A DNA stretch of 64,000 nt from Dehalococcoidia bacterium (GTDB lineage Bacteria > Chloroflexota > Dehalococcoidia > Dehalococcoidales > Fen-1064): assembly GCA_011171075.1 (NCBI GenBank), contig DUFD01000025.1:30281-94280 (forward strand), read 5' to 3'. Positions 19,339 through 50,698 of this stretch are shown piece after piece (within the stretch, counting starts at the first letter, position 1; the number at the start of each line of letters is the position of its first letter). The translations under genes were made by a program, and so were the position numbers. The notes below the pieces were generated by a model. The model did not search any database. It worked only from the letters and a program-made list of their open reading frames with translations, and was not told the origin of the DNA.

Positions 19339-19387
19339 AGCAGAACCCCATGCAACAATATCGTGACCACGCAACTCACCTCATATA

Positions 19388-27664: not shown

Positions 27665-28403
27665 TATCTCTCGCCGGAAAATTGCATTTTAGATATTCAT
27701 ATACCGGGTTCTTCTGTTTGCTCAGGGTATATTCGATGAAATCGAAGTCTTCAGGGCGGTCCAGTTCCCCGACATCCGGTGTAATAAAGGAGAGTATTCT
27801 CGGGCCGTGTAAAGTCCCCAGATTCGTTACGGTCTGGCTCTTTACAATGTCCACGTACCCATTGGGATGATAGACCGGCGGGAAGGCCTGCCGGGGCAGA
27901 TTATAGTATTCGGGTCTCGGGTCGTCGGGAAACAGCCCCACGTAATAGTCGTTTTCGATACCAAAGAGTTTGTAGGGGGACTCTGCGGTCTCACAGGCAG
28001 AGCGGAGGGATGTTGCCTCCTCGTTCCGCATTATCTTGTCAATCGCCTCATCAATGAGGGCTGGGTCTCGTAACGGTGTCGGTGGTGAGAGGATAACGAG
28101 GTATTCCGGTTGGGCCCCTTCGTGAGTCTGGAACCAGCCGAGAGCGTGCTTGACATATTCTATGTCGAGTGAGCTATCTCGTGAGATTTCGGTGGGGCGG
28201 AGGAAAGGGACTTCTGCCCCATAGGTAAGGGCTATTTCGGCAAATTCCTGAGAATCGGTCGAGACTATCGTCCTTTCGATTCTCGAGGACAGTCTTGAAG
28301 CGATTATTGAGTAGGCAATCAGCGGATAGCCCGCTAAGGGTTTGATATTCTTCGCGGGGACCCCTCTACTGCCACTCCTTGCCGGTATCAGGCTAATAAT
28401 CAT
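27633..28403 (-). CDS. Acylneuraminate/ulosonate cytidylyltransferase (NeuA/CMP-sugar synthetase family)
   Basis: The N-terminal signature IISLIPARSGSRGVPAKNIKPLAGYPLIAYSI is typical of CMP-NeuAc/CMP-Kdo-type synthetases. Confidence 0.8.
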   Translation of the reverse strand: MIISLIPARSGSRGVPAKNIKPLAGYPLIAYSIIASRLSSRIERTIVSTDSQEFAEIALTYGAEVPFLRPTEISRDSSLDIEYVKHALGWFQTHEGAQPEYLVILSPPTPLRDPALIDEAIDKIMRNEEATSLRSACETAESPYKLFGIENDYYVGLFPDDPRPEYYNLPRQAFPPVYHPNGYVDIVKSQTVTNLGTLHGPRILSFITPDVGELDRPEDFDFIEYTLSKQKNPVYEYLKCNFPARDIENDKIYVQS

Positions 28404-28467
28404 TGCTCAGCCCTCCAAGAACCTTGAAGACCCGGTAGCTCATCTGGTTTAATATAGTCCGTCCTCG

Positions 28468-29304
28468 CTACCAACCTGTAGGCACCCCCCAGAACTCACA
28501 AGACTGGCACAGGCGCACTTTATTTCTCTGCCCCTGGATGTGGTGTTGCAAGTATGATTTCCTTAATTCGCCATTCCAGATATCTTCCAGAGGTGTGGTG
28601 TTGGCATCACCGATAATTCCATATTTGTGGGGGTCAAATCTGACGCACATGGCAACGCTGCCGTCTCTCTTGATAACCATGTGGCTCAGAAGGTCAAGGC
28701 ATATTCCCAGTTCAGGTACCGTGGGGGATTTCTTGTAGGCAAAGCTACCCATCGGTGAGTGTAATATTCTGGTAGCAATGATGCATCCCAACTCCTTGTA
28801 CCTGACCAGGTCCACGTCGCCGAGGCACCTGATGATTACGTTCGGCCTGCGGTTACGTTTATATGCCAGGAACTCCTTTAGCAGGCTGTATTGCTCGTCG
28901 GCTTCGGGGTCAGCCTCGAAGGTGGATATGGTTATCGTGTCCAGATTGTCTATAATCTCATCGGCTTTTGCTATTAGCAATTTACCGTTCGTGTCCACGC
29001 ACTTAATCTGCCGGTCGAATAACTTCACGGCTTCGCCAAATCGGGGGTAGAGCAAAGGTTCTCCATTATCGTGAAATTGAACGACCATATCCGGGGGTAA
29101 CTGCCTGGCTATTGATTCCACCAAACCCCAGTCCATATCGCCCCAATTGGCTAGTTCAGGGTAGTCCCTCTCTATTTTGCGTCGGCCGCACATCCAGCAG
29201 TTCTTGTTGCACCGACTGGTCAATTCTATATTGACCACTCCCAGGCCATTGAACCCCATTTGTTTCTCCAGTTTTCTATCGGTATCAGGGCAGTAGACTG
29301 TCAT
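28468..29304 (-). CDS. Radical SAM enzyme (possible SPASM-like C-terminal Cys cluster)
   Basis: CX3CX2C motif in ELTSRCNKNCWMCGRR. Further Cys residues near the C-terminus (AMCVRF...LCQSCEFWG). Confidence 0.75.
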   Translation of the reverse strand: MTVYCPDTDRKLEKQMGFNGLGVVNIELTSRCNKNCWMCGRRKIERDYPELANWGDMDWGLVESIARQLPPDMVVQFHDNGEPLLYPRFGEAVKLFDRQIKCVDTNGKLLIAKADEIIDNLDTITISTFEADPEADEQYSLLKEFLAYKRNRRPNVIIRCLGDVDLVRYKELGCIIATRILHSPMGSFAYKKSPTVPELGICLDLLSHMVIKRDGSVAMCVRFDPHKYGIIGDANTTPLEDIWNGELRKSYLQHHIQGQRNKVRLCQSCEFWGVPTGW

Positions 29305-29309
29305 TTTAT

Positions 29310-30176
29310 TCAGGCTGTTGCGTACTCTCTGAAGTATCTTAATTTGGCGGCATTAGCCTCTTCTTCCGCGGTGACTCTCTTGATACCATCGCCGAGTAGC
29401 TTCGGGAGACTCTTGGCGTTATCTACCAGCAGACTGAGTCCTCTGGCTTCGAGGGAGGCCGCCTGGTCACTACCGTACATTGCCCTGTCGAGCGTTATGT
29501 GCCGCTCGATAGCTACTGCGCCCAGCGCGGCGGCTACAATAGATGGCATGGGGCTTACCTCATGCCCGCTGTAACCGACATCACATTTGTAGCGCTCTCT
29601 CAGGGCCTGGATGCATAACAGGTTGAGGTCCTCCTCCCTGGCGGGATACGTCCCCTGACAGTGCATCAGGGTAAAGGGGCACTCATGCTCCCTGAAGATA
29701 TCTACCGCTTTATCAACGTCGTCGTAGGTGCTCATGCCGGTTGATATGAATGTATGCTTGCGCTCCTCGGCAACAACGTTCAGCAGGGGGATATTCGTCA
29801 GCATTGGTGAGGCTATCTTGTTGTATTTGCAGTTGTACTGTCTGATAAACATCTGGCTTTCTACATCCCATGATGAGGCAAACCAGTCGATTCCACGCTG
29901 TCGGCAATGTTCGTCAATGATATCGTATTCCTCTTTGCCGAATTCTAAAGCCTCTTTCTGCGCCCTCTGGGTTGTTCCCCACGGGCTCTCCCTCGGGGAG
30001 TCCAGTAGCTCTTCTGAATAAACAATGTCTACCGTCCTTTTCTGAAACTTGACGGCATCACACCCGCAGTCCTTGGCCATGTCAATAAGCTTTCTAGCTA
30101 TATTGACCACCCCGTTGTGATTGATGCCTATCTCCGCGATGATAAAAGGAATATTGTTTTTGTCCACTACGTCCAC
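29310..30176 (-). CDS. NeuB-family PEP-condensing ulosonate synthase, short form without SAF domain
   Basis: FIIAEIGINHNG...DAVKFQ...GYSGH...ERHITLD matches the NeuB TIM barrel. It is 288 aa, against about 345 aa for NeuB/PseI/LegI. Confidence 0.8.
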   Translation of the reverse strand: MDVVDKNNIPFIIAEIGINHNGVVNIARKLIDMAKDCGCDAVKFQKRTVDIVYSEELLDSPRESPWGTTQRAQKEALEFGKEEYDIIDEHCRQRGIDWFASSWDVESQMFIRQYNCKYNKIASPMLTNIPLLNVVAEERKHTFISTGMSTYDDVDKAVDIFREHECPFTLMHCQGTYPAREEDLNLLCIQALRERYKCDVGYSGHEVSPMPSIVAAALGAVAIERHITLDRAMYGSDQAASLEARGLSLLVDNAKSLPKLLGDGIKRVTAEEEANAAKLRYFREYATA

Positions 30177-30192
30177 ACCCCTTTCCCGGATT

Positions 30193-30831
30193 TTAGTATT
30201 GTTCCGACGGCACGCTGCACTTGCCGAATAGTTCTTTCTCCACCAGATAGCAGATAATGTGGCCCATCATGATGTGCGATTCCTGGATTCGAGGCACCTC
30301 GGTTGAGGGGACAGCCAGTAGATAGTCGACATTTTCTGCCAGTTTCCCGCCTGTAGCTCCGGTAAAAGCTACGGTTATCCCGCCCTGTCGTCTGGCTTCT
30401 TCAATACCTCGAATTACATTTTGCGAGTCGCCACTGGTGCTGATGCCGATGACGACATCACCGGGCTTGACCGATGCCTCGACCTGACGGGCAAAGACCT
30501 CGCTGAAATCATAATCATTGGCAATCGCCGTTAATTCGGACGTATTGGTGGTCAGGGCCAGCGATTCCAGAGCCTTTCTTCTGAGATAAAACTTACTGAC
30601 CAGCTCACAGGACAGGTGTTGGGCATCAGCGGCACTCCCTCCGTTGCCGAACCAGAGAACCTTGTTGCCCTTTCGGTAAACACGAATTATCTCCTCCGCA
30701 ATTTGCGCCATGGTTTTCGGGCAGGTTTCTATTAACTGCTTCTTTACAGAGATACAGTCTTCAATATGTTGCAGTATGTCCTCTTCCATCGAGGTCTGGT
30801 TTATTACCCGTTTCATGCCATCTGGGCTCAT
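30193..30831 (-). CDS. SIS-domain sugar-phosphate isomerase (GmhA/PtmF-like)
   Basis: GNGGSAADAQHLSCELV...ISTSGDS...ESHIMMGH matches the GmhA-type SIS fold. The start is uncertain (30831, 30816 or 30789). Confidence 0.75.
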   Translation of the reverse strand: MSPDGMKRVINQTSMEEDILQHIEDCISVKKQLIETCPKTMAQIAEEIIRVYRKGNKVLWFGNGGSAADAQHLSCELVSKFYLRRKALESLALTTNTSELTAIANDYDFSEVFARQVEASVKPGDVVIGISTSGDSQNVIRGIEEARRQGGITVAFTGATGGKLAENVDYLLAVPSTEVPRIQESHIMMGHIICYLVEKELFGKCSVPSEQY

Positions 30832-30992: not shown

Positions 30993-31937
30993 ATGGGCGG
31001 ACAAAGAGTAGTGGTTACCGGTGGGGCCGGTTTTATTGGCTCACATGTGGCTGAGGCACTGGCGCAGCGTGGATACCGGGTCGTCGTCCTGGATGACCTC
31101 TCTACCGGGAGAAAGGGAAACATTGAACAATTTCTCAGTAATGGCGATGTAGAATTTGTCCAGGGCAGTATTACCGACATCTCTTTATTGCAGCACGCTT
31201 TCAAAGGTGCCCGGTGCGTTTTCCACCTTGCGGCTCTTCCCAGCGTTCCCCGAAGCATCGAAAATCCTGCGGCCTCTCACGAGGTAAATGCCACCGGCAC
31301 GCTGAATGTGCTGCTCGCTGCCAGGGATAACGCTGTCCGGAGGGTAATCTATTCCTCATCATCGTCGGTATATGGTGATACTCCCACCTTGCCCAAAAGG
31401 GAAGACATGCCGCTCAATCCCCGGTCGCCTTACGCGGTAAGTAAGATGACGGGTGAATACTACTGCTCGGTCTTTCAGCAGGTCTATGCTCTGCCCATAG
31501 TTTGCCTTAGGTATTTCAATGTTTACGGCCCGCGACAGGACCCTGCCTCTCAGTATGCCGCAGTAATCCCCAGGTTTATCAACTGGATTTCTCAGGGAAA
31601 TCAGCCGGTAATTCTGGGAGATGGTGAGCAGACCCGCGACTTCACCTTTGTGCGGGATGTTGTGGCGGCCAATATTCTGGCTATGGAGAAAGATCTGAAC
31701 GGCGTCTTCAATATCGGGGGTGGTAGAAGTATTGCGATAAACAAACTGGCCAGACTTGTTATCAGGCTGATGGGTAATAATGTGGAGCCAGTTTATGAAG
31801 CAGCGCGTCCGGGTGATGTCATGCACAGCCTGGCGGACATCTCACGGGCAGAGGCCTGCGGCTATCGGCCAGCCTATAGCCTGGAAGAAGGACTGAGAGA
31901 GACCATAAGGAGCTTCAATGGGACACGACCTGGATAA
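30993..31937 (+). CDS. NAD-dependent nucleotide-sugar 4-epimerase (WbpP/TviC-like SDR)
   Basis: VVVTGGAGFIGSH and catalytic YAVSK. It is translationally overlapped with a WbpO/TviB-like dehydrogenase. Confidence 0.8.
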   Translation: MGGQRVVVTGGAGFIGSHVAEALAQRGYRVVVLDDLSTGRKGNIEQFLSNGDVEFVQGSITDISLLQHAFKGARCVFHLAALPSVPRSIENPAASHEVNATGTLNVLLAARDNAVRRVIYSSSSSVYGDTPTLPKREDMPLNPRSPYAVSKMTGEYYCSVFQQVYALPIVCLRYFNVYGPRQDPASQYAAVIPRFINWISQGNQPVILGDGEQTRDFTFVRDVVAANILAMEKDLNGVFNIGGGRSIAINKLARLVIRLMGNNVEPVYEAARPGDVMHSLADISRAEACGYRPAYSLEEGLRETIRSFNGTRPG

Positions 31938-33168
31938 CAAGTTTGTCTGCGTGGTGGGGCTGGGATATGTGGGCCTACCGCTGGCTGAGGCGTTTGCCGC
32001 GAAATTGAGGGTAATCGGTTTTGATGTTGATAGCGATAGGGTGAGGAAGCTAAAGGAGAGCAACGGCAACGGTAACCTCACCCTGACTGATGACCCAAAG
32101 GAGATAGGCCGGGCTGACTTTGTTATTATCTGCGTGCCTACGCCGCTGACCCGGTCCAGAGAGCCCGACCTTTCCTATGTAATAAGTGCTGCCAGAACGG
32201 TGAGTCAGAACATGAAGCGGGGCAGCGTAATTATTGTCGAGTCCACCTATTACCCGGGTGTCACCGAGGAGGTGGTAAAGCCGATTCTGGAGGAGTCGGG
32301 TTTCCGATGTGGTGATGGCTTTAAGATTGCTTATTCCCCTGAGAGGGTCAATCCCGGCGACAGTGAGCATGAGATTGGCAAAATCAGCAAGGTAGTGAGC
32401 GGGATGGATGTCGAGACCGCAGAAATGGTGGCGCAACTCTACAGCAGGATTACCGATGTTTACATTGCCAGGGATATCAGGACGGCCGAGGCGGCCAAGG
32501 TAATTGAGAATATTCAGCGTGACCTGAATATCGCCCTGATGAATGAGCTGTCGCTTATCTTTGAGCGGATGGGCCTTAGCACCGAAGACGTGCTTGATGC
32601 GGCCGCCACCAAATGGAACTTCGTCCGTTACGCTCCGGGCCTTGTTGGTGGGCACTGCATTCCGGTTGATCCTTACTACCTGGTTCACAAGGCCAGGGCA
32701 CTGGGGTATTATCCGCAGGTCGTGCTGGCGGGCAGGGCGATAAACGACTACATGGCGAAGCACGTCGCCGAGATGATGATAAAAGCACTGAACGAAATGG
32801 GCAGGGTAATTAAAGGCTCTAAAGTGCTGGTAATGGGCTTGACCTATAAGGAGAATGTCCCCGATATCAGGGAAACGCCGGCAAAGGCGGTGATAGGAGA
32901 ATTGAAGGGGTATGGTGTTGATGTATATGGCTACGACCCCCTTCTGGATGGCGTTGAGATTGAATTCGGCATCAAAGCGGTTACGGACCTTAATGGGAAG
33001 ACCAGATACGATGGCATTATCCTCACCGTGGCCCATCAGGCGTTTGAGGGGATAACCCTGGGCAAGCTGGCGGCTATCACGAATAGCCATCCGGTGCTGA
33101 TAGATGTGCGTGGTTATTATGATGGTAAGGAGGCGGTAGCCAACGGGTTCTATTACCGCACTTTATAG
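31918..33168 (+). CDS. Nucleotide-sugar (UDP-HexNAc) 6-dehydrogenase, WbpO/TviB-like
   Basis: NAD fold VVGLGYVGLP and the catalytic region GGHCIPVDPYYL. Confidence 0.8.
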   Translation: MGHDLDNKFVCVVGLGYVGLPLAEAFAAKLRVIGFDVDSDRVRKLKESNGNGNLTLTDDPKEIGRADFVIICVPTPLTRSREPDLSYVISAARTVSQNMKRGSVIIVESTYYPGVTEEVVKPILEESGFRCGDGFKIAYSPERVNPGDSEHEIGKISKVVSGMDVETAEMVAQLYSRITDVYIARDIRTAEAAKVIENIQRDLNIALMNELSLIFERMGLSTEDVLDAAATKWNFVRYAPGLVGGHCIPVDPYYLVHKARALGYYPQVVLAGRAINDYMAKHVAEMMIKALNEMGRVIKGSKVLVMGLTYKENVPDIRETPAKAVIGELKGYGVDVYGYDPLLDGVEIEFGIKAVTDLNGKTRYDGIILTVAHQAFEGITLGKLAAITNSHPVLIDVRGYYDGKEAVANGFYYRTL

Positions 33169-33183: not shown

Positions 33184-33636
33184 ATGAAGGCTTTATTCCA
33201 TAAGCACCAGTCCGGCTATATCCTTTCCGTTGTTCTCTTGGGAGCGGTACTGGGGGTTACGGGTGTGTTGGGCTACTCGCTGACTACCTTCTACGGAGGG
33301 GAGTCGTTTACCGAGTTTTATATCCTGGGAGTTAGTGGCAATACTGAAGAATACCCGACAGAGATCAGGGTTGGTGAGGAGGCGCAGGTAATTGTCGGAA
33401 TCATAAACCACGAAGGGGAACAGCAGAGCTATCAGGCGGAGGTCAGGATAAACGGCGTATTCAAGAACAGCGTTGGCCCTATTGCGCTGGCAAACGAAAA
33501 GGGTTGGGAAGGTATGCTTGGTTTCATATCGGATAGCGTGGGAAATAACCAGAAAGTGGAATTCTTGCTGTTTAAGGGAGAGGAGACCGAATCCTGTCTG
33601 GAGCCACTCCGCCTGTGGGTTAATGTGAGGGAATAG
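33184..33636 (+). CDS. Small single-pass membrane protein with extracytoplasmic beta-rich domain (DUF1616-like)
   Basis: An N-terminal TM helix is followed by FTEFYILG...EEYP...VIVGIINHEGEQQSYQAEV. The family call is from memory. Confidence 0.5.
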   Translation: MKALFHKHQSGYILSVVLLGAVLGVTGVLGYSLTTFYGGESFTEFYILGVSGNTEEYPTEIRVGEEAQVIVGIINHEGEQQSYQAEVRINGVFKNSVGPIALANEKGWEGMLGFISDSVGNNQKVEFLLFKGEETESCLEPLRLWVNVRE

Positions 33637-33662: not shown

Positions 33663-33950
33663 TTGGAAAAGGGTGAAATCAGGGAAGTGATTTACGCTTC
33701 TATGAGGACGATAAACGAGCAAAAAGACAGAGGCGACCGTCTGGAATTGAAGGAAGATACATGCCTGTTCGGGAGAGAGTCGAAGCTTGACTCTCTTGGT
33801 CTGGTGAATCTCATTGTCGATATCGAGCAAAGACTTACCGACGGGTTCGGCGTTGAAATATCACTGACCGACGAAAGAGCAATGTCGCCGGAGAATAGTC
33901 CATTTATGAACGTTAAATCGCTGACCGATTACATTTCCTCGCTTGTGTAG
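33663..33950 (+). CDS. Acyl carrier protein
   Basis: 95 aa with the phosphopantetheine attachment motif LDSLGLVNL. It lies immediately upstream of the FkbH-like loader. Confidence 0.75.
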   Translation: MEKGEIREVIYASMRTINEQKDRGDRLELKEDTCLFGRESKLDSLGLVNLIVDIEQRLTDGFGVEISLTDERAMSPENSPFMNVKSLTDYISSLV

Positions 33951-33959
33951 AGGAGGCCG

Positions 33960-35654
33960 ATGGCCCCTAAAGATTTCAAGTGCCTGCTCGTAGCCGATTT
34001 TACTATTGATGGTTTTGCAGGCTATTTGAAAAACGATGAAGACTTCCCCACGGTTGAAAGCATTGTGGCTCCGTTCGACCAGGTGGTTCAGGTGCTGATG
34101 GACGGTGACCTGGAGTGCTGGAAGAGTAAGCCTGATTTTGCCGTGGTCTGGACTCGCCCCGAGAGTATTATCAGGTCTTTTAATCAGGTACTCGATTATG
34201 AGGCCGTGCCGATGGCGCAGATTCTTAAGGAAGTGGATGAGTACGCTTCACTCCTGGCGATGATGAGCGGTAGAGTGAAATCAGTGCTTGTGCCGACATG
34301 GGTTTCTCCACCGTACCACAGGGGCCTGGGGATGCTCGACCTGAAGACAGGCATCGGGGTAGCCAGTACCCTGATGCGGATGAACCTGAGGCTTGCGGAG
34401 AATTTCGATGAATCGTCTAACATATATTTGCTGGATACTCAGAGGTGGGTAAGTGTCGCCGGAAAGCACGCCTTTAACCCGAAGCTATGGTACATGGGTA
34501 AGGTTGCCTTTGGTAGCGACGTTTTCAAAGAAGGCGTCAGGGATGTGAAGTCGGCTCTGAGCGGTATAGTTGGCGGTTCCAAAAAACTGATAATCCTCGA
34601 CCTCGATGATACCCTCTGGGGTGGGGTTGTCGGCGACGTCGGCTGGGAAGGTATCAGGTTGGGTGGACATGATCATCTCGGTGAGGCATACGTTGATTTC
34701 CAGCGTGCCCTGAAATCACTGACAAAACGCGGCATCCTGCTGGGGATAGTTAGCAAGAACGAGGAGGCGGTAGCAATCGAGGCGATAACCAGTCACCCGG
34801 AGATGGTCCTCCGGCTGGATGACTTTGCTGGCTGGAGGATTAACTGGCAGGACAAGGCCCTGAATATCGTTGACCTGGTCTCGGAATTAAACCTCGGCCT
34901 GCAGTCGGTAGTATTTATTGATGACAACCCGGTGGAAAGGGCACGGGTCAGAGAGGCGTTGAGCGAAGTTTTCGTGCCGGAGTGGCCCGAAGACAAGATG
35001 CTTTACCGGAGTACGCTGCTTGGCCTGCGTGTATTTGATACTCCTTCTATCAGTGAGGAGGATGCCGGGAGAACGAAGATGTATGTACTGGAGCGGCAGC
35101 GTAGCGACCTGAAGAAGACGGTTGGCTCCCTGGATGAGTGGCTAAGGAGCCTGGACACAAAAATACAGGTGGAGGAGTTGAATAAGGCCAATCTGCAGCG
35201 GGCTGCCCAGTTATTGAACAAGACCAACCAGATGAATCTCACGACAAGAAGAATGACCGAGTTGGAAATGGCAGACTGGGCCCGGCAGGACAATCATAAA
35301 CTATGGACTTTTCGGGTATCGGACAATTTCGGGGATTCGGGACTGACCGGCATAATTAGTCTGGAATTCGAAGGTAAGGTTGGGAGGATTGTGGACTTTG
35401 TGCTGAGCTGCCGGGTCATGGGGCGTAAAGTCGAGGAGACGATGCTCTATACGGCAATCAAAGGTGCAAAATCTCAGCACCTGGATAGGATATACGCAAA
35501 TTATATCCCGACCTTCAGGAATAAGCCGTGCCTGGATTTCTGGAAGACATCAGGATTTTCTTATAACGGCACAGATAGCTGTTTTTCCTGGGAGCTATGT
35601 GATGAGTACGCCTTGCCCGACTGTATAAAAATCGAGGGTGAGAAGGAAGCGTGA
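33960..35654 (+). CDS. FkbH-like HAD-IIIC phosphatase/acyl-ACP loader
   Basis: The HAD motif I context LIILDLDDTLWGGVVGD...GILLGIVSKNEE...VFIDDNP is typical of the FkbH family. Confidence 0.8.
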   Translation: MAPKDFKCLLVADFTIDGFAGYLKNDEDFPTVESIVAPFDQVVQVLMDGDLECWKSKPDFAVVWTRPESIIRSFNQVLDYEAVPMAQILKEVDEYASLLAMMSGRVKSVLVPTWVSPPYHRGLGMLDLKTGIGVASTLMRMNLRLAENFDESSNIYLLDTQRWVSVAGKHAFNPKLWYMGKVAFGSDVFKEGVRDVKSALSGIVGGSKKLIILDLDDTLWGGVVGDVGWEGIRLGGHDHLGEAYVDFQRALKSLTKRGILLGIVSKNEEAVAIEAITSHPEMVLRLDDFAGWRINWQDKALNIVDLVSELNLGLQSVVFIDDNPVERARVREALSEVFVPEWPEDKMLYRSTLLGLRVFDTPSISEEDAGRTKMYVLERQRSDLKKTVGSLDEWLRSLDTKIQVEELNKANLQRAAQLLNKTNQMNLTTRRMTELEMADWARQDNHKLWTFRVSDNFGDSGLTGIISLEFEGKVGRIVDFVLSCRVMGRKVEETMLYTAIKGAKSQHLDRIYANYIPTFRNKPCLDFWKTSGFSYNGTDSCFSWELCDEYALPDCIKIEGEKEA

Positions 35655-35657
35655 CCT

Positions 35658-36083
35658 GTGGCTGCTGAGCGCTCACGGAGAATCAAGCGGTTACACTTCT
35701 TCGGGGAAAAGGCGCGCTTTCATCATATCGGCCTTGCTGTGAAGTCTATCAGAGATGTGAGCCCGTCGAGTGAAGTAATCGTGGATTCCGTTCAAAAGGT
35801 CTCTCTTGCCTTTGTCTCGGTCGGCGGGATTAAAATCGAGTTTCTTGAGCCGTCGGGTGAGGACTCCCCGGTGTTCGAGAGCCTGAAGAAAAACGTGAAG
35901 CTCCTTCACATCTGTTACTCGGTCCCCGATATCGAAAAAGCCATACAAGAATGCCGGAAACATGGTTTCCATTGCATTGCCCGACCGGTACCGGCTGTGG
36001 CGTTCAACAACCGTAAAATCGCCTGGGTTTATAGTCCGGTATACGGGCTGATTGAGCTACTGGAGAGTCCTGGAAAGCCATAA
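35658..36083 (+). CDS. VOC-family, methylmalonyl-CoA-epimerase-like protein
   Basis: GTG start. FHHIGLAV...IEFLEP...LLHICYSVPDI...GLIELLE matches the epimerase-type VOC pattern. Confidence 0.7.
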   Translation: MAAERSRRIKRLHFFGEKARFHHIGLAVKSIRDVSPSSEVIVDSVQKVSLAFVSVGGIKIEFLEPSGEDSPVFESLKKNVKLLHICYSVPDIEKAIQECRKHGFHCIARPVPAVAFNNRKIAWVYSPVYGLIELLESPGKP

Positions 36084-36091
36084 CAGTTGAG

Positions 36092-37234
36092 ATGAGCGCC
36101 TATAAACAGAGTGGTACCCGTGAAACTAAGCTTTCAGATGAAGTGATACTCCGTCCGTTCTGCGATGACGACCTGGGCGGTGTGATTGACCTGATAACAG
36201 GCACGCTTAATTCAATATACTCTGCCGACGAGCTAAGAAAAATATGGAACTGGAAGTTCAATGAGAACCCGTTTTCTTCAGGGCAGGCCCCGCATGCCAT
36301 CGTCCTGGAGCATGATGGGAGGATTGTTGGCAATACCGGGCAGGTGGCCATACCCGTAAAGCTGGGAGAAAAGTTCGTCACCGGCTATGCCAACAGTGAT
36401 TTTGCTGTAGCAGAGGGATACCGCACGTATGGCCTGAGACTGGCGAGCACGTTCTGGCGGAATGCGGGAGTGCCTTTTCTAATAGCCACCAGTGCCAACG
36501 AAACAGCCTGTGCCGTGGACAGGGCTTTTGGCGCCAGAGAACTGATATCGTCCAGGACACGCTGGTTCAAGGTAAGGCATCCCTTCCGGGTGCTGGGGGC
36601 GCTCAACATGCGGAAAAACGGGGCGGTTGGTGAGTCCTTCGCCGATAATTTATGGATGCTGCCTGTTTCCGGTCTGAAGTCTCTGGTTAGCACACCGCTT
36701 GGTCTTAAAAAGGTCTCCGGGGGTGGGCTGGAGGTAAGAGAAGTAAGTGAATTCGGTGATGAGTTTGATGAGCTATGGGAAGAGGTCTCCCCCTATTATC
36801 CTGTTGCTGTGGCACGCAACAGCCAATACCTGAACTGGCGCTACGCTCAGTATCCCCTGGGAAAGACACGCGTATTCGCCGCTTACCGTGGGAGTAGGTT
36901 GCAGGGGTTCACGGTTGTTCAGGTATCATGGAGACTGGTCGATATCGCGATAAAGCAGGCCTGCATAACCGAACTGTTCACCAGACCCGGCGACGGAGCA
37001 GCTCAGCAACAGCTACTTAAAGCTGCGTTAGTCTGTGCGAAGACGGAAGACGTGGACATTGTTCAGGCCCTGGGCTTCACTTCTGGGGTGTGCAAGCTGC
37101 TCGAGGAGAACTTTTTTCTGAAAACAAGGACGAGGTGGAGTCCCTATCTATACAAAAACAACATCGACGCTAGCCACAGCGTATCTGAAGAGGGCTGGTT
37201 TATCTCGCTGGGCGATGGTGATGCCGTATTCTAG
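36092..37234 (+). CDS. GNAT-like acyltransferase (two-domain, 380 aa)
   Basis: The ILRPFCDDDL...AIVLEHDGRIVGNTG beta-strand pattern resembles GNAT. It is the last gene of the ACP-FkbH cassette. The family call is weak. Confidence 0.55.
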   Translation: MSAYKQSGTRETKLSDEVILRPFCDDDLGGVIDLITGTLNSIYSADELRKIWNWKFNENPFSSGQAPHAIVLEHDGRIVGNTGQVAIPVKLGEKFVTGYANSDFAVAEGYRTYGLRLASTFWRNAGVPFLIATSANETACAVDRAFGARELISSRTRWFKVRHPFRVLGALNMRKNGAVGESFADNLWMLPVSGLKSLVSTPLGLKKVSGGGLEVREVSEFGDEFDELWEEVSPYYPVAVARNSQYLNWRYAQYPLGKTRVFAAYRGSRLQGFTVVQVSWRLVDIAIKQACITELFTRPGDGAAQQQLLKAALVCAKTEDVDIVQALGFTSGVCKLLEENFFLKTRTRWSPYLYKNNIDASHSVSEEGWFISLGDGDAVF

Positions 37235-37265: not shown

Positions 37266-38954
37266 TTACTCGTCACGTGCTATTTCCGTGTCCGAATGTA
37301 ATCCGGCTGCCGAATCGAGCAGACTTTGCGTATGTGGACTAGAAGGGCTCGTTATGATTTGGCTGGTTGAGCCCTGCTCCGCAATCCTGCCTTCGTGCAT
37401 TACCGCGATACGGTCGCTAATCTTGCGGGCGACCGCAATATCGTGGGTGATGAAAAGCATGCTCAGCCCACGGTTCTCCTGCAGGTTCATCAGCAGCTTG
37501 AGAACTTTTGCCTGAATACTGGAGTCGAGAAATGCCGTCGGCTCGTCGGCGATAAGGACCTGGGGATTGAGCACCAGTGCCCGGGCGATATTGACTCGCT
37601 GAAGTTCACCGCCGCTAAGATGGTGCGGGTACTCGTCGAGGAACTCCTCGGTGGTCGGTAGCTCGACCTCTTCGATAACCTTTCTGGCAGCCTTGTCCTG
37701 TTCCGCTCTGGTACCGATGCCCTGGACCTCCAGCGGCTCCCGGACTGCTTCCAGCACTGTCAGTCGGTGACTCAATGCCTCGCCGGGATTCTGAAAAACG
37801 AGCTGGACGGTACGGTGAAAATCCTTGCTTGGCTGTCCGGCCTTCCTATGCTCAATAAAGATTTCGCCCGCATCTGGTTCGAGAATCCCGCTGAGCATCC
37901 GGGCGAGCGTTGTTTTCCCCGAACCGCTCTGACCCACCAGCGCCAGTGTCTCGCCGTGCTCCAGTACAAGACTTACGCCATCGACGGCTTTAAGCGTCTT
38001 GAATGACTTGCTGATGTCGGTCACCGACAGGGCGGGGATGATGCCCCCGCGATGACAGGCGACCAGTCGCCCTTCATGGTTCTCCAGGGCGGGTATTTGT
38101 TCGCGGCAGATTGGAATGGCCTGCGTGCAGCGAGGGTGGAACGGGCAACCGATAACCCGTCGGTCCATTCTGCCCTTTATTCCCTGCAGGTCTTTTACGG
38201 TGGTCATGTTGGGATACGAGCGGAGCAAAGCCCGGGTGTAGGGGTGGCGGGGCTGCGAGAGCATCAGGTTGGTAGGTCCCAGTTCAACGATGCGCCCACC
38301 GTAGAGGGTTGCCGTCCTAGAGGCAAGCTTGGCGGCGGTAGAGAGATTATGGGTTACCAGCAATGTCATGCGACCAGCAATCGCCCGTCGCAGGAACGCT
38401 ATCATTTCCACCTGGGATTTAGCATCCAGCGAGGAGATGGGCTCATCGAGGATGAGCAGTTCGGGCTCATTGACCAGGGCCATGGCAATCAGCACGCGCT
38501 GTTGCTCGCCACCACTCAGCTCATGCGGGTAGTGCGAGAGTTTCTCCGGCTCAATGCCCACTTTTTCCAGTAAGCCGGCTGCCTTTTCTCTGGCTGGTGC
38601 TTTTTCTTGTTTTCCATGAGCAATCAGCGGCTCAGCTACTTGGTCCAGAATCCGGTGGGTGGGATTTAACCGGTTCTGCGAGCTCTGGAATGCCATCGCC
38701 ACATGACTCCATCGGAGATTGCGCATCTCTTCCTCAGAGAGGGTCAGGATATTGGTATCACCGAGGTTGATTTGGCCAGCAGTATTTCCATTAAGGAGCC
38801 CCATGATGCTGAGCCCCAGCGTCGTTTTGCCGGCGCCCGATTCGCCGATGACAGCGAGACATTCATCGTCGGCCACTTCAAGGTTGATTCCCCGAAGAAT
38901 CGACTCTCCGTCAAAGCTGACCTTTAAGTCCTCAATTTTGAGCACTGACTTCAC
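37266..38954 (-). CDS. Fused double ABC ATPase (DppD/DppF- or NikD/NikE-type)
   Basis: Two Walker A motifs (GESGAGKT, GQSGSGKT), two LSGGE(Q/L)QR signatures, and a Cys-rich oligopeptide-type C-terminal segment between the halves. Confidence 0.9.
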   Translation of the reverse strand: MKSVLKIEDLKVSFDGESILRGINLEVADDECLAVIGESGAGKTTLGLSIMGLLNGNTAGQINLGDTNILTLSEEEMRNLRWSHVAMAFQSSQNRLNPTHRILDQVAEPLIAHGKQEKAPAREKAAGLLEKVGIEPEKLSHYPHELSGGEQQRVLIAMALVNEPELLILDEPISSLDAKSQVEMIAFLRRAIAGRMTLLVTHNLSTAAKLASRTATLYGGRIVELGPTNLMLSQPRHPYTRALLRSYPNMTTVKDLQGIKGRMDRRVIGCPFHPRCTQAIPICREQIPALENHEGRLVACHRGGIIPALSVTDISKSFKTLKAVDGVSLVLEHGETLALVGQSGSGKTTLARMLSGILEPDAGEIFIEHRKAGQPSKDFHRTVQLVFQNPGEALSHRLTVLEAVREPLEVQGIGTRAEQDKAARKVIEEVELPTTEEFLDEYPHHLSGGELQRVNIARALVLNPQVLIADEPTAFLDSSIQAKVLKLLMNLQENRGLSMLFITHDIAVARKISDRIAVMHEGRIAEQGSTSQIITSPSSPHTQSLLDSAAGLHSDTEIARDE

Positions 38955-39939
38955 CCCTGAGTCTCGGGTCCAACGCCGGTTCCAGCGCCGAGCCTATCAA
39001 CGTAATGGCGACGATGGTTATCGAAAGGGCTACCCCGGCCGGTACAAGCCACCAGCGCCATGCATCGAGGAATATCCATTGGCGGGCATCGTTAATCATG
39101 CTCCCCCAGCTCACCACGTTGGGATTGCCAATGCCCAGAAAGGCCATACCGGCCTGGAGGAACACCGCACGCCGCACACAAAAAACGAAATCCGCCACCA
39201 GCAGGGGACCCATATCCGGTATGATATGACGGCGTATTATGTACCACGTGTTAGCCCCGAATCCCCGGGCGGCAGCAACATGGGGTTTCTCTTTCAGCGC
39301 CAGTGCCTGGGCTCTTAGAGTTCGTGCTCCGCCCTGCCAGCTCAGCAGTGAGAGGATGATGATTAACCCGCCGGTGGTGGGCAGCAAATTGCGTGCCAGG
39401 ACAATCAGTGCGAGCACGGGCCCGATTATGAGAAGTCCTACCCATCCCAGGCTGCGTACCATATAAAACGCTATCCCGACTACAATAATGCCGATAAGGA
39501 CTTCGATGGCAATGATGGCCCCACTGCCCAGGTTTGGGTCGACATATATGGAGAGCAGGATGAGGAGGAGTATCATCGGGATAATGATGAAGGCATCGAC
39601 CAGCCGCATAACTATCCGGTCATAGACACCACCAATCAGGGCGGTCGAAGCACCGATTAAAGCCGCCAGCACGGTCGAAAGGGCTGCCACCAGCAGTCCC
39701 ACCACGAGCGAGGTACGTGCCCCGTAAACGAGCTGGCTCCAGATATCCTGTCCGACATGGTTGGTTCCCAGCAGGTGTTCCCAGGACGGCGATTCAAAGG
39801 ATTGGGCCGTTTGTGCCAACGGGTCATAAGGGGTAAGCAGGTCTGCGAAGATGGCCATCAGGACAACGACCAGGAGCAACGTCAGCCCGAGCCTGCCACC
39901 TTTGCTCTTAACCACTTCTTGTTTGGGGTCAATGTGCAT
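38932..39939 (-). CDS. ABC permease (DppC/NikC-type)
   Basis: Multi-helix protein with an EAA-like loop (ALKEKPHVAAARGFGA). It overlaps neighbouring genes within the operon. Confidence 0.85.
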   Translation of the reverse strand: MHIDPKQEVVKSKGGRLGLTLLLVVVLMAIFADLLTPYDPLAQTAQSFESPSWEHLLGTNHVGQDIWSQLVYGARTSLVVGLLVAALSTVLAALIGASTALIGGVYDRIVMRLVDAFIIIPMILLLILLSIYVDPNLGSGAIIAIEVLIGIIVVGIAFYMVRSLGWVGLLIIGPVLALIVLARNLLPTTGGLIIILSLLSWQGGARTLRAQALALKEKPHVAAARGFGANTWYIIRRHIIPDMGPLLVADFVFCVRRAVFLQAGMAFLGIGNPNVVSWGSMINDARQWIFLDAWRWWLVPAGVALSITIVAITLIGSALEPALDPRLRGEVSAQN

Positions 39940-40900
39940 AGCTCACCCTCGGGTCGACTCTGGCATAAAGCAGGTCGACGATAAAATTGGCTCCGAGCAC
40001 GCAGAATGCCGATACCAGCAACAGTCCCTGGAGCACCGGGTAATCACGGAAGGTCAGGGCATCGTATGCCAGAAGCCCGATACCGGGATAGGAAAAAACG
40101 ACCTCGATGAACAGTACGCCGGTGACCATAAGCCCCATCCAGATACCGGTTTGTGTCATTACCGGGAGCATCGAGTTCCTGCCGGCGTGCCTGTATTTTA
40201 CCGTTCGTGGTTTAAGGCCCTTGGCGCGGGCCAGCAGAATATAGGGTTCTTTGAGAACGCCTATCATGGTGTTTCGGGTTAAGAGGTATCCTCCGGTGAT
40301 GCGTGCCAGTACCAGTGTGGTGAGGGGCAGGATGAGGTGCTCACCAATATCGATAAGGCGGGCGAATCCAGAAAGGCCGGAATAGACGTCCTCGGCCCCG
40401 AAGAGGGGCAGGACTTTCAGGTTTACGGCAAACAGGAGAAGGAGCAATATCCCCAGGAAGAAATCAGGAAAGCCACTGAGGGTCACCATTCCGGAGAGTA
40501 CTCCGCTATCGAACCGCCCGCCCCGGCGCCATCCAGACTCAATGCCCAGCATAATACCGATTGCCGTGGAGAGAAGCAGTGCCAGACCAGCGAGCAGTAA
40601 CGTCCAGGGCAGGCGGCCAAAGATTACCTCGGTGACCGGGGCATTATAGGAGTAGGAATAACCCAGGTCGCCCCGGAAGAGTGCCAACCAGTACGAGGCA
40701 AACTGTTCGGCCAGCGACTGGTCAAGGGCAAAGCGCTCCGTCAGGTCTGCCTTGAGTTGCGGACTCATCTGTACCAGCGCCTCGTCGCCGTAGATGGCCA
40801 TCAGCGGGTCACCGGGCATCATCCGGGGAAGAAAAAAGTTAAGCGTCAGGATGATGAGCAGCGCAATTAGATAGGTGAGCAAGTTCCCTTTAGTTAACAT
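39929..40900 (-). CDS. ABC permease (DppB/NikB-type)
   Basis: N-terminal LNFFLPRMMPGDP and EAA loop PYILLARAKGL. Confidence 0.85.
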   Translation of the reverse strand: MLTKGNLLTYLIALLIILTLNFFLPRMMPGDPLMAIYGDEALVQMSPQLKADLTERFALDQSLAEQFASYWLALFRGDLGYSYSYNAPVTEVIFGRLPWTLLLAGLALLLSTAIGIMLGIESGWRRGGRFDSGVLSGMVTLSGFPDFFLGILLLLLFAVNLKVLPLFGAEDVYSGLSGFARLIDIGEHLILPLTTLVLARITGGYLLTRNTMIGVLKEPYILLARAKGLKPRTVKYRHAGRNSMLPVMTQTGIWMGLMVTGVLFIEVVFSYPGIGLLAYDALTFRDYPVLQGLLLVSAFCVLGANFIVDLLYARVDPRVSYAH

Positions 40901-41028
40901 AAGTCAAATGTCGTTGTGGGTCGTATCTGGAGTCCACCCCTCCACCATTTTCGTCGTTCCTGGTTAGCGTTTCTACCTCTGAAAGATAACTACCGGTCTG
41001 GGCTTGATTTCATATATTTCTTAATTGT

Positions 41029-42609
41029 CTATTTCCCTAGGAGGGACATCTTGTTCAATGGAATTGGTATCCCCGAGGCAATCCCGCCATCCGTATAATA
41101 CCAATCAATGGTGCCGTCATGCGCCCAGTATGAGTCCGGGTGATACAGCGTGATGGCCGGTACATCTTCGGCGTAGAGCGCCTCTGCCTGCTGGACTATC
41201 ACCAGCCGGGCATCGGGATCCATCTCGTGGAGCTGCTCTTCAAGTAGCCGGGTCAGTTCTTCGTTGGCCGTGTACCGGGCGCTGTTGAAGCCGGAGCTGG
41301 TGATTACCCTCGGCAGGATAGATGGTTCGTACAGACCACCGTGACCGTACACCGAGAGGTCAAAATCCCAGGCCTCCACCTTTGCATCGAGGCTCTTGCC
41401 TTCCATCATGACGAGGTCGATTTTGATGCCGGCATCTTCAAGCGCATCTTTGAGGAACTGGCCTACCTCTTCGAAGCCGTACGAAGTCTGTGAAATCAGC
41501 TCAAGCTCCAGCACCTCTCCGTTCTTGGTGTAGAAGCCGTCATCGTTCAGTACATAGCCCAGTCCCTCAAGTAACTGACGTGCTTTTTGCAGGTTGTACT
41601 CGTACTGCTCGATATCAGGGTTATACCAGTAGTTGTCCGGCGCCAGCAGGCACGGACTTCCCGGGATTCCGTGGCCCCTCTGGGTAACATCCACTAGTTC
41701 CTGCCTGTCGATGGCATAGGCCAGCGCCTGACGAAACTCCTTTTGGTTCATGGGCTCTTTCTGGTGATTAATCGTTAGCTTGGCGCACCAGTTGTAGGAT
41801 GACTTGAGGATTGTGAATCCCTGGGACTCGAGACTATCTATCATTTCCTCCTCAATGCCGGCGGCGTCCACCTCTCCCTGAGTCAATGCTGCGGTCACCA
41901 TTTCCTCGCTTGTTTTCACGAAGACCAACCGGTCAACCTTTGGCTTGCCCTGATAGTAATCATCGAAGGCCTCGTAGAGATATGTACCCTGGGCTTTGTC
42001 GTAGTCGATGAGCTTGTAAGGGCCACTCCCGATAACGGCTTCGGGGCCATCAAAGGTCATTGGGTCCTCTACATCCTCCCATATGTGCTTTGGCAGGATT
42101 GCCATGGTGCCGGCGATTTCATAGAGGAAGGGTGCGTAAAGCGATTCCAGGTAAAGCTTGACCGTATGTTCATCGATTACCACGGCTTCCGTGATACCGC
42201 TGGGCCCGATGAGGGTTACAAAGGGGTCGGGGTGGCTTTTCACGTAGTCGACAGTAAAGGCTATATCCTCGGCAGTAACAGGCTCTCCATCGTGCCATTT
42301 GGCGTTCTCCTGAAGTTCAAAAGTGTAGGCATTGTCTGAATCATCATATGTCCATTCCTTTGCCAGCGCCGGAATGAAATCCCCGCTTTCATTTCTCCAG
42401 ATAAGCGTATCAAAGACAAAGCTCATGCGGATATACCCCGGTCCCCTGGAGTAGCGAAGATAGGGAGAGGGGTAGCCCCAGTCACCAGTGGAATCGGCTA
42501 TCGTGTAGGTCTCAATCTGCGGCTCGTTACCACAGCCCGGTAATATCAGCAAAATAATGGCCAGAATAACAGCCGTTGCTTTAGGCAATATGCTAATTAT
42601 TCTCGACAT
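41029..42609 (-). CDS. ABC substrate-binding lipoprotein, family 5 (peptide/nickel)
   Basis: Signal peptide with lipobox LPGC. 526 aa with a family-5 layout. Confidence 0.85.
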   Translation of the reverse strand: MSRIISILPKATAVILAIILLILPGCGNEPQIETYTIADSTGDWGYPSPYLRYSRGPGYIRMSFVFDTLIWRNESGDFIPALAKEWTYDDSDNAYTFELQENAKWHDGEPVTAEDIAFTVDYVKSHPDPFVTLIGPSGITEAVVIDEHTVKLYLESLYAPFLYEIAGTMAILPKHIWEDVEDPMTFDGPEAVIGSGPYKLIDYDKAQGTYLYEAFDDYYQGKPKVDRLVFVKTSEEMVTAALTQGEVDAAGIEEEMIDSLESQGFTILKSSYNWCAKLTINHQKEPMNQKEFRQALAYAIDRQELVDVTQRGHGIPGSPCLLAPDNYWYNPDIEQYEYNLQKARQLLEGLGYVLNDDGFYTKNGEVLELELISQTSYGFEEVGQFLKDALEDAGIKIDLVMMEGKSLDAKVEAWDFDLSVYGHGGLYEPSILPRVITSSGFNSARYTANEELTRLLEEQLHEMDPDARLVIVQQAEALYAEDVPAITLYHPDSYWAHDGTIDWYYTDGGIASGIPIPLNKMSLLGK

Positions 42610-47265: not shown

Positions 47266-47597
47266 TTCAAGCTCCTTGCTTGGAGGATGTGTATCTCTTT
47301 ACCTTTTTACACTCGGCATATGCGCCGGGCTGCTGCACTATTTGCTAGCATTATAACAGCCATTACCTGTGTGCTCAATGATGGCTATTCCTCCTACAAC
47401 GAAAGCTGCTGCGCGTCATCAATTAGTAACTTGGCGGTGAGTAGACCGATTAATATCAATGTGTGGTACAATGGGGGCTGTATTCTCTGTGATATTCTGT
47501 CTTATGGATTATTATTATCCAGACGAATACAATGGAAATTGATTGTAGCTATAGCGAATTATGCATACCTACGATGTGGCGATGGGGGTAGGCTGCC

Positions 47598-50681: not shown

Positions 50682-50698
50682 CGGTTAGTTTACCTTTA

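Follow-up and report, generated by a model that had tools for sequence, protein, structure and literature searches.

The four-gene cassette described here lies on a contig of a Dehalococcoidia bacterium (GenBank assembly GCA_011171075.1, contig DUFD01000025.1), of which the 64,000 nucleotides from position 30,281 to 94,280 were analysed and are referred to as the window. The cassette occupies positions 33663–37234 of the window and encodes a putative acyl carrier protein (ACP), an FkbH-type protein, a metalloenzyme of the VOC superfamily and a protein with two predicted GNAT domains. An initial annotation, made without database searches, had proposed that these genes attach a glyceryl-derived acyl group to a sugar, and the coordinates and + strand that it gave for the four open reading frames (ORFs) are correct. 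Together with three upstream genes they are arranged as follows.

30993–31937, + strand: TviC-like UDP-GlcNAcA 4-epimerase (NCBIfam NF011728, 213 bits)
31918–33168, + strand: TviB-like UDP-GlcNAc 6-dehydrogenase (NF011729, 362 bits; TIGR03026, 376 bits, over the cut-off)
33184–33636, + strand: DUF1616 small membrane protein of 150 amino acids, between the sugar genes and the ACP gene (PF07760, E = 2.5e-27)
33663–33950, + strand: ACP of 95 amino acids, TTG start (ORF list)
33960–35654, + strand: FkbH protein of 564 amino acids (ORF list)
35658–36083, + strand: VOC-superfamily metalloenzyme of 141 amino acids (ORF list)
36092–37234, + strand: tandem-GNAT protein of 380 amino acids (ORF list)

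The seven ORFs between 30993 and 37234 share the + strand and are separated by -20, 15, 26, 9, 3 and 8 nucleotides. The TviC- and TviB-like genes overlap by 20 nucleotides, and the ACP stop codon lies 9 nucleotides ahead of the FkbH gene, the start of which is preceded by a GAGGAGG ribosome-binding site. A search for internal terminators across the seven-gene block found none that was convincing, and the 3' end of the block converges on an ABC-transporter (ATP-binding cassette) gene at 37266. As far as sequence can show, the four cassette genes therefore belong to one operon with the TviC- and TviB-like genes, as had been claimed of the cassette and the UDP-HexNAcA genes. The seven-gene order is repeated on four metagenomic contigs with identical proteins (L001–L004) and in L092, a relative with 87% identity. 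The DUF1616 gene keeps its place between the sugar genes and the ACP gene in L001, L002, L004 and L092, and the order ACP, FkbH, VOC, tandem GNAT is also found in the close relatives L001–L003 and L092.

The 564-residue protein is assigned by curated model to the FkbH family of enzymes. TIGR01686 is matched over residues 208–535 with 274.9 bits (cut-off 146.65) and the HAD-IIIC model TIGR01681 with 56.9 bits (cut-off 35.75), while PF21211 (FkbH_N) is also matched in the Pfam scan. The DLDDTLWGG core, by which the protein had originally been recognized as FkbH-like, corresponds to residues 213–221. Three domains can be distinguished.

Residues ~1–200: FkbH_N domain
Residues ~208–360: HAD-IIIC phosphatase domain (D214/D216/T218, S265-K266, D321-D322)
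Residues ~400–560: C-terminal domain with a GNAT fold (Cys484 in SCRVMGR)

Residues 37–366 match Bacteroides fragilis BF1531 (PDB 3slr; N-terminal plus phosphatase part) with E = 8.5e-45. Residue conservation was assessed in an alignment of 19 sequences, the window protein and 18 homologues from several phyla. D214-L-D216-x-T218, S265-K266, D321 and S483-C484-R485 (in LSCRVMGR) are invariant, and at least 90% of the sequences have D322. These motifs, C484 included, persist in FkbH-like proteins of only 31–34% identity; a second cysteine, C524, does not. The protein retains the HAD aspartates D214 and D216 in the phosphatase domain and has an invariant cysteine, C484, in the C-terminal domain.

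The AlphaFold model of the FkbH protein (predicted local distance difference test, pLDDT, 75; predicted template modelling score, pTM, 0.49) matches 3slr, and over ~170 residues it also matches many GNAT acetyltransferases, with template modelling (TM) scores of 0.6–0.68 on the target. It is because of this second match that the C-terminal domain is assigned a GNAT fold. The packing of the domains against one another is unreliable, as the pTM is low. C484 sits immediately ahead of the RxxG loop, which in GNATs holds the pantetheine arm. Such a position fits a domain handing an acyl group to holo-ACP, and C484 is the probable counterpart of the catalytic cysteine in characterized FkbH enzymes. 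Homologues of the protein number more than 6000 at E ≤ 0.001. The closest 120 are 62–100% identical and belong to Anaerolineae, Planctomycetota, Omnitrophota, Entotheonella and further groups; identities this high across phyla suggest strong constraint and possibly horizontal spread.

The 95-residue ACP contains the motif L42-D43-S44-L45-G46, in which Ser44 is the predicted phosphopantetheine attachment site and which aligns with the DSL of solved ACPs in weak PDB matches. Its sole NCBIfam match, to NF058660, is also weak (E = 1.5e-4; 21.9 bits against a cut-off of 80 bits), and in the Pfam scan at E ≤ 0.01 no match to the PP-binding family PF00550 was obtained. The equivalent genes of more distant loci, which encode 68–78 amino acids, do match PF00550. 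All 50 aligned ACP-like genes adjoining FkbH homologues retain Ser44, and 94% of them Asp43, in agreement with the earlier description of an ACP with a DSL motif. The missing PP-binding match could be taken to mean that the small ORF is not a carrier protein and that the FkbH homologue is merely a phosphatase; several sources label such homologues as phosphatases, the NCBI name being ‘HAD-IIIC family phosphatase’. This is extremely improbable, as the Cys-bearing GNAT-fold domain is invariant, TIGR01686 is matched well over its cut-off, and the adjacent small protein with its invariant DSL serine is nearly always present. Among the 80 related loci described below, an ACP-like gene lies directly upstream of FkbH in at least 62.

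The 141-residue protein had been described as a methylmalonyl-CoA-epimerase-like VOC protein. The superfamily assignment stands (PF13669, E = 4e-15) and the resemblance to the epimerase does not extend to family membership, for TIGR03081 is matched with 47.2 bits against a cut-off of 114.95. The glyoxalase I model TIGR00068 also scores below its cut-off (19.9 against 120 bits). The best PDB relatives are 2QH0 and 3HDP, both of Clostridium acetobutylicum glyoxalase I, which match over the full length (E = 5e-25; 89 bits for 3HDP), while human methylmalonyl-CoA epimerase (MCEE) matches in the central part only, with 39 bits. In the alignment with 3HDP the positions of H23, E61, H84 and E133 are conserved (H-E-H-E). 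We take the four 3HDP positions to be the metal ligands of that enzyme, presumably one of the Ni-dependent type, and these residues are accordingly the predicted ligands of the window VOC.

The VOC protein and MCEE have in common the VOC fold and a central motif, K-x-E-x-L-x-P...DSP...HHIC, and the removal by the epimerase of a proton alpha to a thioester would suit an acyl-ACP epimerase. The window protein differs from methylmalonyl-CoA epimerase in lying under the family cut-off and in its H-E-H-E site: the lysine of its LKKN aligns with the glutamine of the MCEE sequence LQK, presumably a metal ligand in an H-Q-H-E site. On these comparisons its nearer affinity is with glyoxalase I of the C. 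acetobutylicum type, methylmalonyl-CoA epimerase being more distant. Glyoxalase I yields a 2-hydroxyacyl thioester through an enediolate, and glyceryl-S-ACP, the product expected of FkbH, is a thioester of the same class. To our knowledge the reactions of this group all run via a metal-stabilized enolate or enediolate beside a thioester or hemithioacetal. The C. acetobutylicum enzyme was reportedly characterized with the hemithioacetal of methylglyoxal and glutathione. Although it is the best structural relative and has the same four H/E/H/E ligand positions, it differs from the window VOC in its hemithioacetal substrate, that of the latter being likely an ACP-bound 2-hydroxyacyl thioester.

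The 380-residue protein gave no match to Pfam, NCBIfam or the sequences of the PDB. Direct assignment to a family by sequence failed, and only remote homologues and the predicted fold resolved its nature. A large-database search returned just 26 relatives, the distant ones of which carry PF13527 or PF00583. Two motifs are conserved in their alignment, YLNWRY and W369..G-D375-x-D377 (W..GDGD), the latter a few residues from the C-terminus. The AlphaFold model (pLDDT 84, pTM 0.83) has N-myristoyltransferases as its top Foldseek matches (E = 4e-14, TM 0.58, 9–13% identity), and the protein is accordingly modelled as a tandem GNAT with an N-myristoyltransferase-like architecture. The two-domain GNAT-like acyltransferase of the initial annotation is therefore borne out by the predicted fold and by the GNAT domains of remote homologues.

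N-myristoyltransferase is the archetypal fused double-GNAT enzyme and has a catalytic C-terminal carboxylate. Two fused GNAT domains are likewise present in tandem GNATs of the FemX and MshD type, and the GDGD near the C-terminus of the window protein recalls, by analogy, the catalytic carboxylate of N-myristoyltransferase. The 380-residue protein differs from N-myristoyltransferases in that identity of 9–13% does not amount to membership at the sequence level, and in its bacterial glycan context. When compared by hhalign with two groups of GNATs linked to FkbH, it gave probabilities of 99.5% (E = 2e-23) and 97.2%; both groups are full-length relatives, C-terminal GDGD included. Related FkbH-linked families match PF00583 directly. 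Genes of this type sit among sugar-modifying genes, encoding deacetylases, glycosyltransferases and PseB-like dehydratases.

The setting of FkbH was compared in 80 related loci (L005–L084), taken from many phyla with one genome per species and encoding FkbH proteins 52–70% identical to that of the window. The ACP–FkbH pair forms a near-constant core, and the genes downstream vary. VOC homologues were found by tblastn in 14 of the loci, 11 of them directly downstream of FkbH, and in 13 FkbH is followed by a fusion of a MaoC dehydratase and a ketoreductase (MaoC-KR). No locus has both of them after FkbH; by chance alone an overlap of only ~1.8 loci would be expected. Other partners downstream are hexapeptide (LbH) or PglD-type acyltransferases, some of the LbH proteins being fused to a second ACP, as well as MBOATs and GNATs. 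Tandem GNATs like the 380-residue protein form four clusters from ~20 loci, in the same operon as ACP–FkbH, and are accompanied either by a VOC (L007, L008, L010) or by MaoC-KR (L018, L022, L034, L058). Such a distribution is expected if the acyl group held by the ACP is tailored by the middle enzyme and delivered by the tandem GNAT. The complete or partial order of the window cassette recurs in L007, L008 and L010, an adjacent ACP being detected in the first two and not in L010. In the reading proposed below, ACP–FkbH would be a portable donor module, coupled according to lineage to a tandem GNAT, a PglD-type LbH protein or an MBOAT.

On pSymB of Sinorhizobium meliloti (L094, CP140883.1 1045239–1064732) an MBOAT gene, a gene annotated as a TonB-dependent receptor, an ACP gene and an FkbH-like ‘HAD family hydrolase’ follow one another in this order, and ~40 S. 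meliloti plasmid records carry this FkbH homologue. By analogy, the arrangement looks like a Dlt-like system that would place an FkbH-derived acyl group on an extracytoplasmic polymer.

The neighbours of the related loci were classified by a Pfam scan of 132 flanking ORFs chosen at random. Most frequent are the families polysaccharide deacetylase (9), glycosyltransferase family 2 (GT2; 6) and Hexapep (6), followed by short-chain dehydrogenase/reductase, epimerase/dehydratase and Wzy, and no ketosynthase or polyketide synthase (PKS) family is among the 25 commonest. Within the scanned window ORFs (the longer ORFs of ~1–37 kb and selected others) no ketosynthase, PKS, FkbI/FkbK-type dehydrogenase or FabH-like/KAS III protein was detected. 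On these two surveys a PKS or tetronate context was rejected; related cassettes lie in polysaccharide or nonulosonic-acid loci and not in polyketide or tetronate loci. That the cassette nevertheless serves secondary metabolism (a polyketide, a tetronate or a methoxymalonyl extender unit), with its glycan neighbours coincidental, might be argued from the fact that all biochemically characterized FkbH enzymes act in PKS or tetronate pathways (PMC7489565, PMC3679948), and a few related loci contain genes that are NRPS-like (non-ribosomal peptide synthetase) or encode KAS III (3 of the 80 window-type loci and several Firmicute-type relatives). We consider this very improbable, since the cassette shares its operon with nucleotide-sugar genes, the census is dominated by polysaccharide families, and even the relatives with KAS III have PglD, DegT, glycosyltransferase and Wzy genes as neighbours.

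A link with nonulosonic acids emerged from the VOC relatives. A search with the 3HDP sequence provided six members of its subfamily that were examined in their contigs (L085, L086/L087 and L088–L091). The 80%-identical orthologue of 3HDP in Clostridium felsineum lies in a flagellin/pseudaminic-acid glycosylation island (L085, CP096980.1 2140635–2157021) with genes for an FkbH_N protein, a 73-residue ACP-like protein, a Maf-type (MptE-like) transferase and a DUF2172/M28 peptidase like Cj1295 of Campylobacter jejuni; the island also encodes a PseB-like dehydratase, a CMP-transferase, NeuB and a PseG-like protein. The remaining members come from five glycan loci (L086–L091), usually in company with a PglD-like N-acyltransferase and sometimes with KAS III, a second ACP and a ketoreductase. 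In L086/L087, L088, L089 and L090 the VOC gene directly follows, or overlaps the end of, an FkbH-like gene of 545–550 amino acids, which is itself preceded by a small ACP gene, and in L086/L087 this ACP–FkbH–VOC triad stands directly upstream of a legionaminic-acid-type operon. In L091 the VOC gene follows a KAS III gene, with an ACP gene and an unannotated gene of 483 amino acids next downstream. Of 6 loci sampled from the 3HDP subfamily, 5 have a homologue of the window VOC placed directly after FkbH. Several Firmicute-type loci have the VOC gene and then ACP and ketoreductase genes, and some relatives adjoin PglD-like N-acyltransferases and DegT aminotransferases. The glyoxalase label of 3HDP may not match its physiological role.

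In a further locus (L093) an FkbH protein 71% identical to that of the window is encoded inside a pseudaminic-acid-type operon, in the order PseB, PseC, ..., PseF, ACP, FkbH, MaoC-KR, GNAT, NeuB, methyltransferase, ..., PseG-like. The ACP-like gene of this locus is unusually long (116 amino acids) and overlaps the start of FkbH. Among the 80 window-type loci NeuB occurs within 10 kb in 3, which rules out a universal link of window-type FkbH to nonulosonic-acid genes; the link is strong in some sublineages only.

N-Glyceroyl and 2,3-di-O-methylglyceroyl groups are found on pseudaminic acid in Tannerella (PMC5378307) and C. jejuni (PMC3068675), strain 11168 of the latter carrying 2,3-di-O-methylglyceroyl-pseudaminic acid (PMC3068675; bioRxiv 10.64898/2026.04.20.719630). 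The genetic basis of the N-glyceroyl substitutions was termed a major challenge by the Tannerella authors in 2017 (PMC5378307), and in C. jejuni Cj1295 is the sole gene tied to the methylglyceroyl modification (PMC3068675). The C. jejuni glycosylation island includes cj1302, a gene with an FkbH domain, and cj1301, which is ‘annotated as an epimerase’ (PMC7099621). A literature search for a link between FkbH and glycans found none beyond this annotation-level mention of cj1302 (PMC7099621), although non-open-access work may exist. When compared by published gene descriptions, the island of C. jejuni NCTC 11168 (cj1295, cj1298–cj1302; Pse5(2,3-di-O-methylglyceroyl)7Ac) combines an FkbH-domain gene, a nonulosonic-acid locus and an O-methylated N-glyceroyl product, the roles of cj1299–cj1302 being unproven in the accounts found. 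The window similarly combines the FkbH cassette with a NeuB-like gene and many methyltransferases, but has no Cj1295-like DUF2172 peptidase and no Maf genes.

Together these observations suggest that the four genes form a self-contained module which makes an acyl donor and transfers it, decorating a cell-surface glycan; we put the probability of this reading at roughly 0.6. Established FkbH chemistry leads from 1,3-bisphosphoglycerate to glyceryl-S-ACP (PMC7489565). Family membership and the conserved residues suggest the same loading step here, in which FkbH would take 1,3-bisphosphoglycerate, the HAD domain (D214/D216) would remove the 3-phosphate, and the glyceryl group would pass via Cys484 of the GNAT-fold domain to the phosphopantetheine on Ser44 of the ACP, giving D-glyceryl-S-ACP. 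In a second, tailoring step the VOC might bind this 2-hydroxyacyl thioester through its H-E-H-E metal site and abstract the proton at C2, giving an enediolate. Inversion at C2 to L-glyceryl-ACP would then be the likeliest result, with dehydration or isomerization through the enediolate as the alternative. Although this step, deduced from the relatives of the VOC, is the least certain, C2 epimerization is the simplest self-contained reaction, and it fits the VOC cassettes that have no reductase (the window, L090 and L007–L010).

An enediolate could also eliminate the 3-hydroxyl, in which case the donor module would operate as described and pyruvoyl-ACP, lactyl-ACP (after reduction) or another isomer would be formed, the decoration being of the pyruvoyl or lactyl type. 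We regard this outcome as unlikely. It would agree with the proximity of the VOC to the glyoxalase I type and its enediolate chemistry, with the VOC–ACP–ketoreductase succession of the Firmicute-type loci, and with the presence of MaoC-KR in the position after FkbH (13 of 80 loci) and never with a VOC, as for alternative tailoring routes; this mutual exclusion is weak evidence, however, given the small chance overlap. In the window, L090 and L007–L010 the VOC is present and a ketoreductase is not, and the product of dehydration would there remain a reactive 2-oxoacyl thioester. In addition, we know of no dehydratase in the VOC family.

For the proposed module with an epimerized glyceryl donor, the last step would be the transfer of the C3 acyl group from the ACP to an acceptor by the tandem GNAT, as suggested by its predicted fold and by co-occurrence. 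The acceptor is most likely a free amine of a nucleotide-activated sugar from the neighbouring operon, such as a 4-amino-6-deoxyhexose or an amino-ulosonic acid. The UDP-HexNAcA made by the cassette's own operon has no free amine, so the likelier acceptors are the amino sugars of the divergent operon described below, whose aminotransferases and methyltransferases imply free sugar amines and a capacity for O-methylation nearby. From gene context, that operon could supply both acceptor amino sugars and O-methylation to the cassette. One or more of the methyltransferases of the locus may then O-methylate the glyceroyl hydroxyls, a speculative step for which C. jejuni offers the precedent and which would yield the O-methylated glyceroyl amides suggested in the initial annotation.

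Transfer to something other than a sugar amine would make use of the same donor, the acceptor being a lipid, a surface protein (at a lysine or the N-terminus) or the hydroxyl of a sugar such as GalNAcA, which would then carry an O-glyceroyl ester. That the best structural matches of the 380-residue model are protein N-myristoyltransferases can be read in this sense, as can the HexNAc uronic acid without a free amine expected from the sugar genes of the operon, and the coupling of other FkbH–ACP pairs to MBOAT O-acyltransferases. The identity to N-myristoyltransferases is merely 9–13%, however, and tandem GNATs include small-molecule N-acyltransferases; the related genes are embedded among sugar-modifying genes, and relatives pair FkbH–ACP with PseH-like or PglD-like sugar N-acyltransferases. 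An acceptor of this kind is therefore quite improbable, and a sugar amine is preferred.

Transfer to an amine has parallels in PseH, a GNAT, and in the LbH-type sugar N-acyltransferases PglD and LegH, which move an activated acyl group onto the amine of a nucleotide-linked amino sugar and whose homologues (PseH-like GNAT or PglD-like LbH genes) adjoin ACP–FkbH in relatives of the window. The window transferase differs from these in being a two-domain GNAT that no curated model describes, and its donor is presumably an acyl-ACP and not acetyl-CoA. ACP-dependent N-acyl tailoring resembling the proposed logic of the cassette is known from RfbK-O of Vibrio cholerae O1.

Several points weigh against a glyceroyl-transferring glycan module as a whole. 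Loading, tailoring and transfer are all deduced from homology and gene context. At the protein level, the ACP falls outside the PP-binding family in the Pfam scan, the FkbH model has a low pTM (0.49), and the correspondence of C484 to the catalytic cysteine of characterized enzymes is no more than probable. The reaction of the VOC is a guess, as the protein lies under the cut-offs of both methylmalonyl-CoA epimerase and glyoxalase I, and since most FkbH loci lack it, the donor module can do without it. The connection with nonulosonic acids is not a general one, in view of the 3 loci of 80 with NeuB nearby. Finally, the sugar product of the operon itself, of the UDP-GalNAcA type, has no free amine and the window has no deacetylase, so that O-acylation or a non-sugar acceptor is possible. 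Even so, the interpretation made in the initial annotation is supported at the level of sequence analysis: those of its elements that could be checked held, and none of the circumstances it had named as refuting it was encountered. There are three corrections, which concern the type of VOC, the acceptor and the wider ACP–FkbH module of which the cassette is one case.

The cassette shares with the FkbH/FkbJ-type systems of PKS and tetronate pathways (FK520 FkbH, OzmB/OzmE, Tmn16, Mad7/Mad8, Mad14/Mad12) the FkbH domain, the HAD aspartates, the adjacent standalone ACP and, presumably, the conserved C-terminal cysteine, the substrate 1,3-bisphosphoglycerate and the product glyceryl-S-ACP (PMC7489565). 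Unlike these systems, it has no PKS, FabH-like tetronate synthase, FkbI/FkbK dehydrogenase or FkbG, and couples FkbH to a VOC and a tandem GNAT within a glycan locus. The glyceryl unit thus appears to be used as an acyl decoration and not as a building block for chains. What is new is the FkbH-coupled VOC and the ACP-linked tandem GNAT, both of uncharacterized families, in combination with a known loading chemistry apparently redeployed for glycans.

A broader proposal can be made tentatively, with the odds somewhat against all of its parts holding together. ACP–FkbH would be a widespread, horizontally mobile donor of C3-hydroxyacyl groups for surface glycans and would supply the genetic basis that N-glyceroyl and di-O-methylglyceroyl nonulosonic acids have so far lacked; the VOC would be a new 2-hydroxyacyl-ACP epimerase or isomerase; the physiological role of 3HDP would have been misassigned; and the 380-residue protein would found a family of ACP-dependent tandem-GNAT sugar acyltransferases. 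The enzyme of 3HDP and 2QH0 was published as a glyoxalase I (Suttisansanee et al., 2011, as cited in PMC4833937).

In pathogens such as Campylobacter and Tannerella, antigenicity, recognition by phages and interactions with the immune system are shaped by glyceroyl groups, methylated or not, on pseudaminic and legionaminic acids, and the genes that install these groups are not defined (PMC5378307, PMC3068675). The window and the more than 6000 homologues of its FkbH protein point to a route in which FkbH captures a glycolytic intermediate on a carrier and interchangeable acyltransferases pass it to sugars. The cassette would give a testable genetic basis for glyceroyl sugar decorations, an open question in bacterial glycobiology. 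If the proposal is true, FkbH chemistry would extend from polyketides to glycans, acyl decorations of glycans would become predictable from genomes, an orphan VOC subfamily with a crystal structure would gain a probable physiological role, and enzymes would be at hand for producing acyl-modified nonulosonic acids.

The window from position 1 to ~37.2 kb is one large glycan locus, in which the cassette operon is preceded by a long operon on the opposite strand. This operon and two further features of the window are as follows.

8969–30831, − strand: divergent glycan operon (Pfam and NCBIfam scans)
4603–6756: DUF2206 membrane protein
57556–58764: EF-Tu (bacterial model, 719 bits), followed by a ribosomal L10 leader and four tRNA genes

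The divergent operon encodes a GmhA-like isomerase, a short NeuB-like synthase, an rSAM-SPASM protein, a PseF-like cytidylyltransferase, a class-III aminotransferase and a second VOC protein. Also present are at least five methyltransferases, a Wzx flippase, a large protein like CDP-glycerol glycerophosphotransferases (Glyphos_transf), two DegT aminotransferases, a nucleotidyltransferase, a 4,6-dehydratase, a GT2 enzyme and an AsnB-like amidotransferase. GT4 glycosyltransferases, more methyltransferases and the DUF2206 membrane protein lie further upstream. No polysaccharide deacetylase homologue is present in the window, and a scheme of deacetylation followed by reacylation is thereby ruled out here, though deacetylases are the commonest neighbours elsewhere.

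Two parts of the divergent operon are unusual in themselves. The genes at 25831–30831 (− strand) form an ulosonic-acid sub-cluster in which the GmhA-like SIS isomerase is accompanied by a 288-residue NeuB-like synthase that scores under both the NeuB and the PseI cut-offs, the rSAM-SPASM protein, the PseF-like cytidylyltransferase (also under its cut-off), the class-III aminotransferase and the second VOC, and from which the sugar product is not obvious. At 17227–19374 (− strand) a protein of 715 residues consists of a Trm112p-like zinc ribbon, a SAM methyltransferase and an APH-type kinase domain, and this fusion may add a modification of the phospho or methyl-phospho type.

DUF1616 and DUF2206, which we take to be mostly archaeal families, and matches to archaeal-type models coexist in the window with a bacterial EF-Tu. 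The archaeal origin that they suggested was rejected on account of this EF-Tu and of the L10 leader. Immediately beyond the cassette, an Opp/Dpp-type ABC block (37266–42609, − strand) encodes a fused double ATPase, two permeases and an SBP_bac_5 binding protein, and separates the cassette from TreT-like genes. In L092 the TreT genes directly follow the tandem GNAT, so the block is either an insertion in the window or a deletion in L092. In the region 44035–49778 two TreT-like genes for trehalose synthase stand side by side (− strand), accompanied by a gene for a bifunctional trehalose-phosphate synthase/phosphatase, OtsA/OtsB (+ strand), and trehalose synthesis is thus redundantly encoded beside the glycan locus. 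Next to it, at 49836–55258 (− strand), are a pterin-binding/CdhD-like gene (annotated via the syntenic copy in L092), two MtaA/URO-D-like methyltransferase genes and a gene for an AcsV-like corrinoid activation protein, which suggest corrinoid-dependent methyl transfer in an anaerobe.

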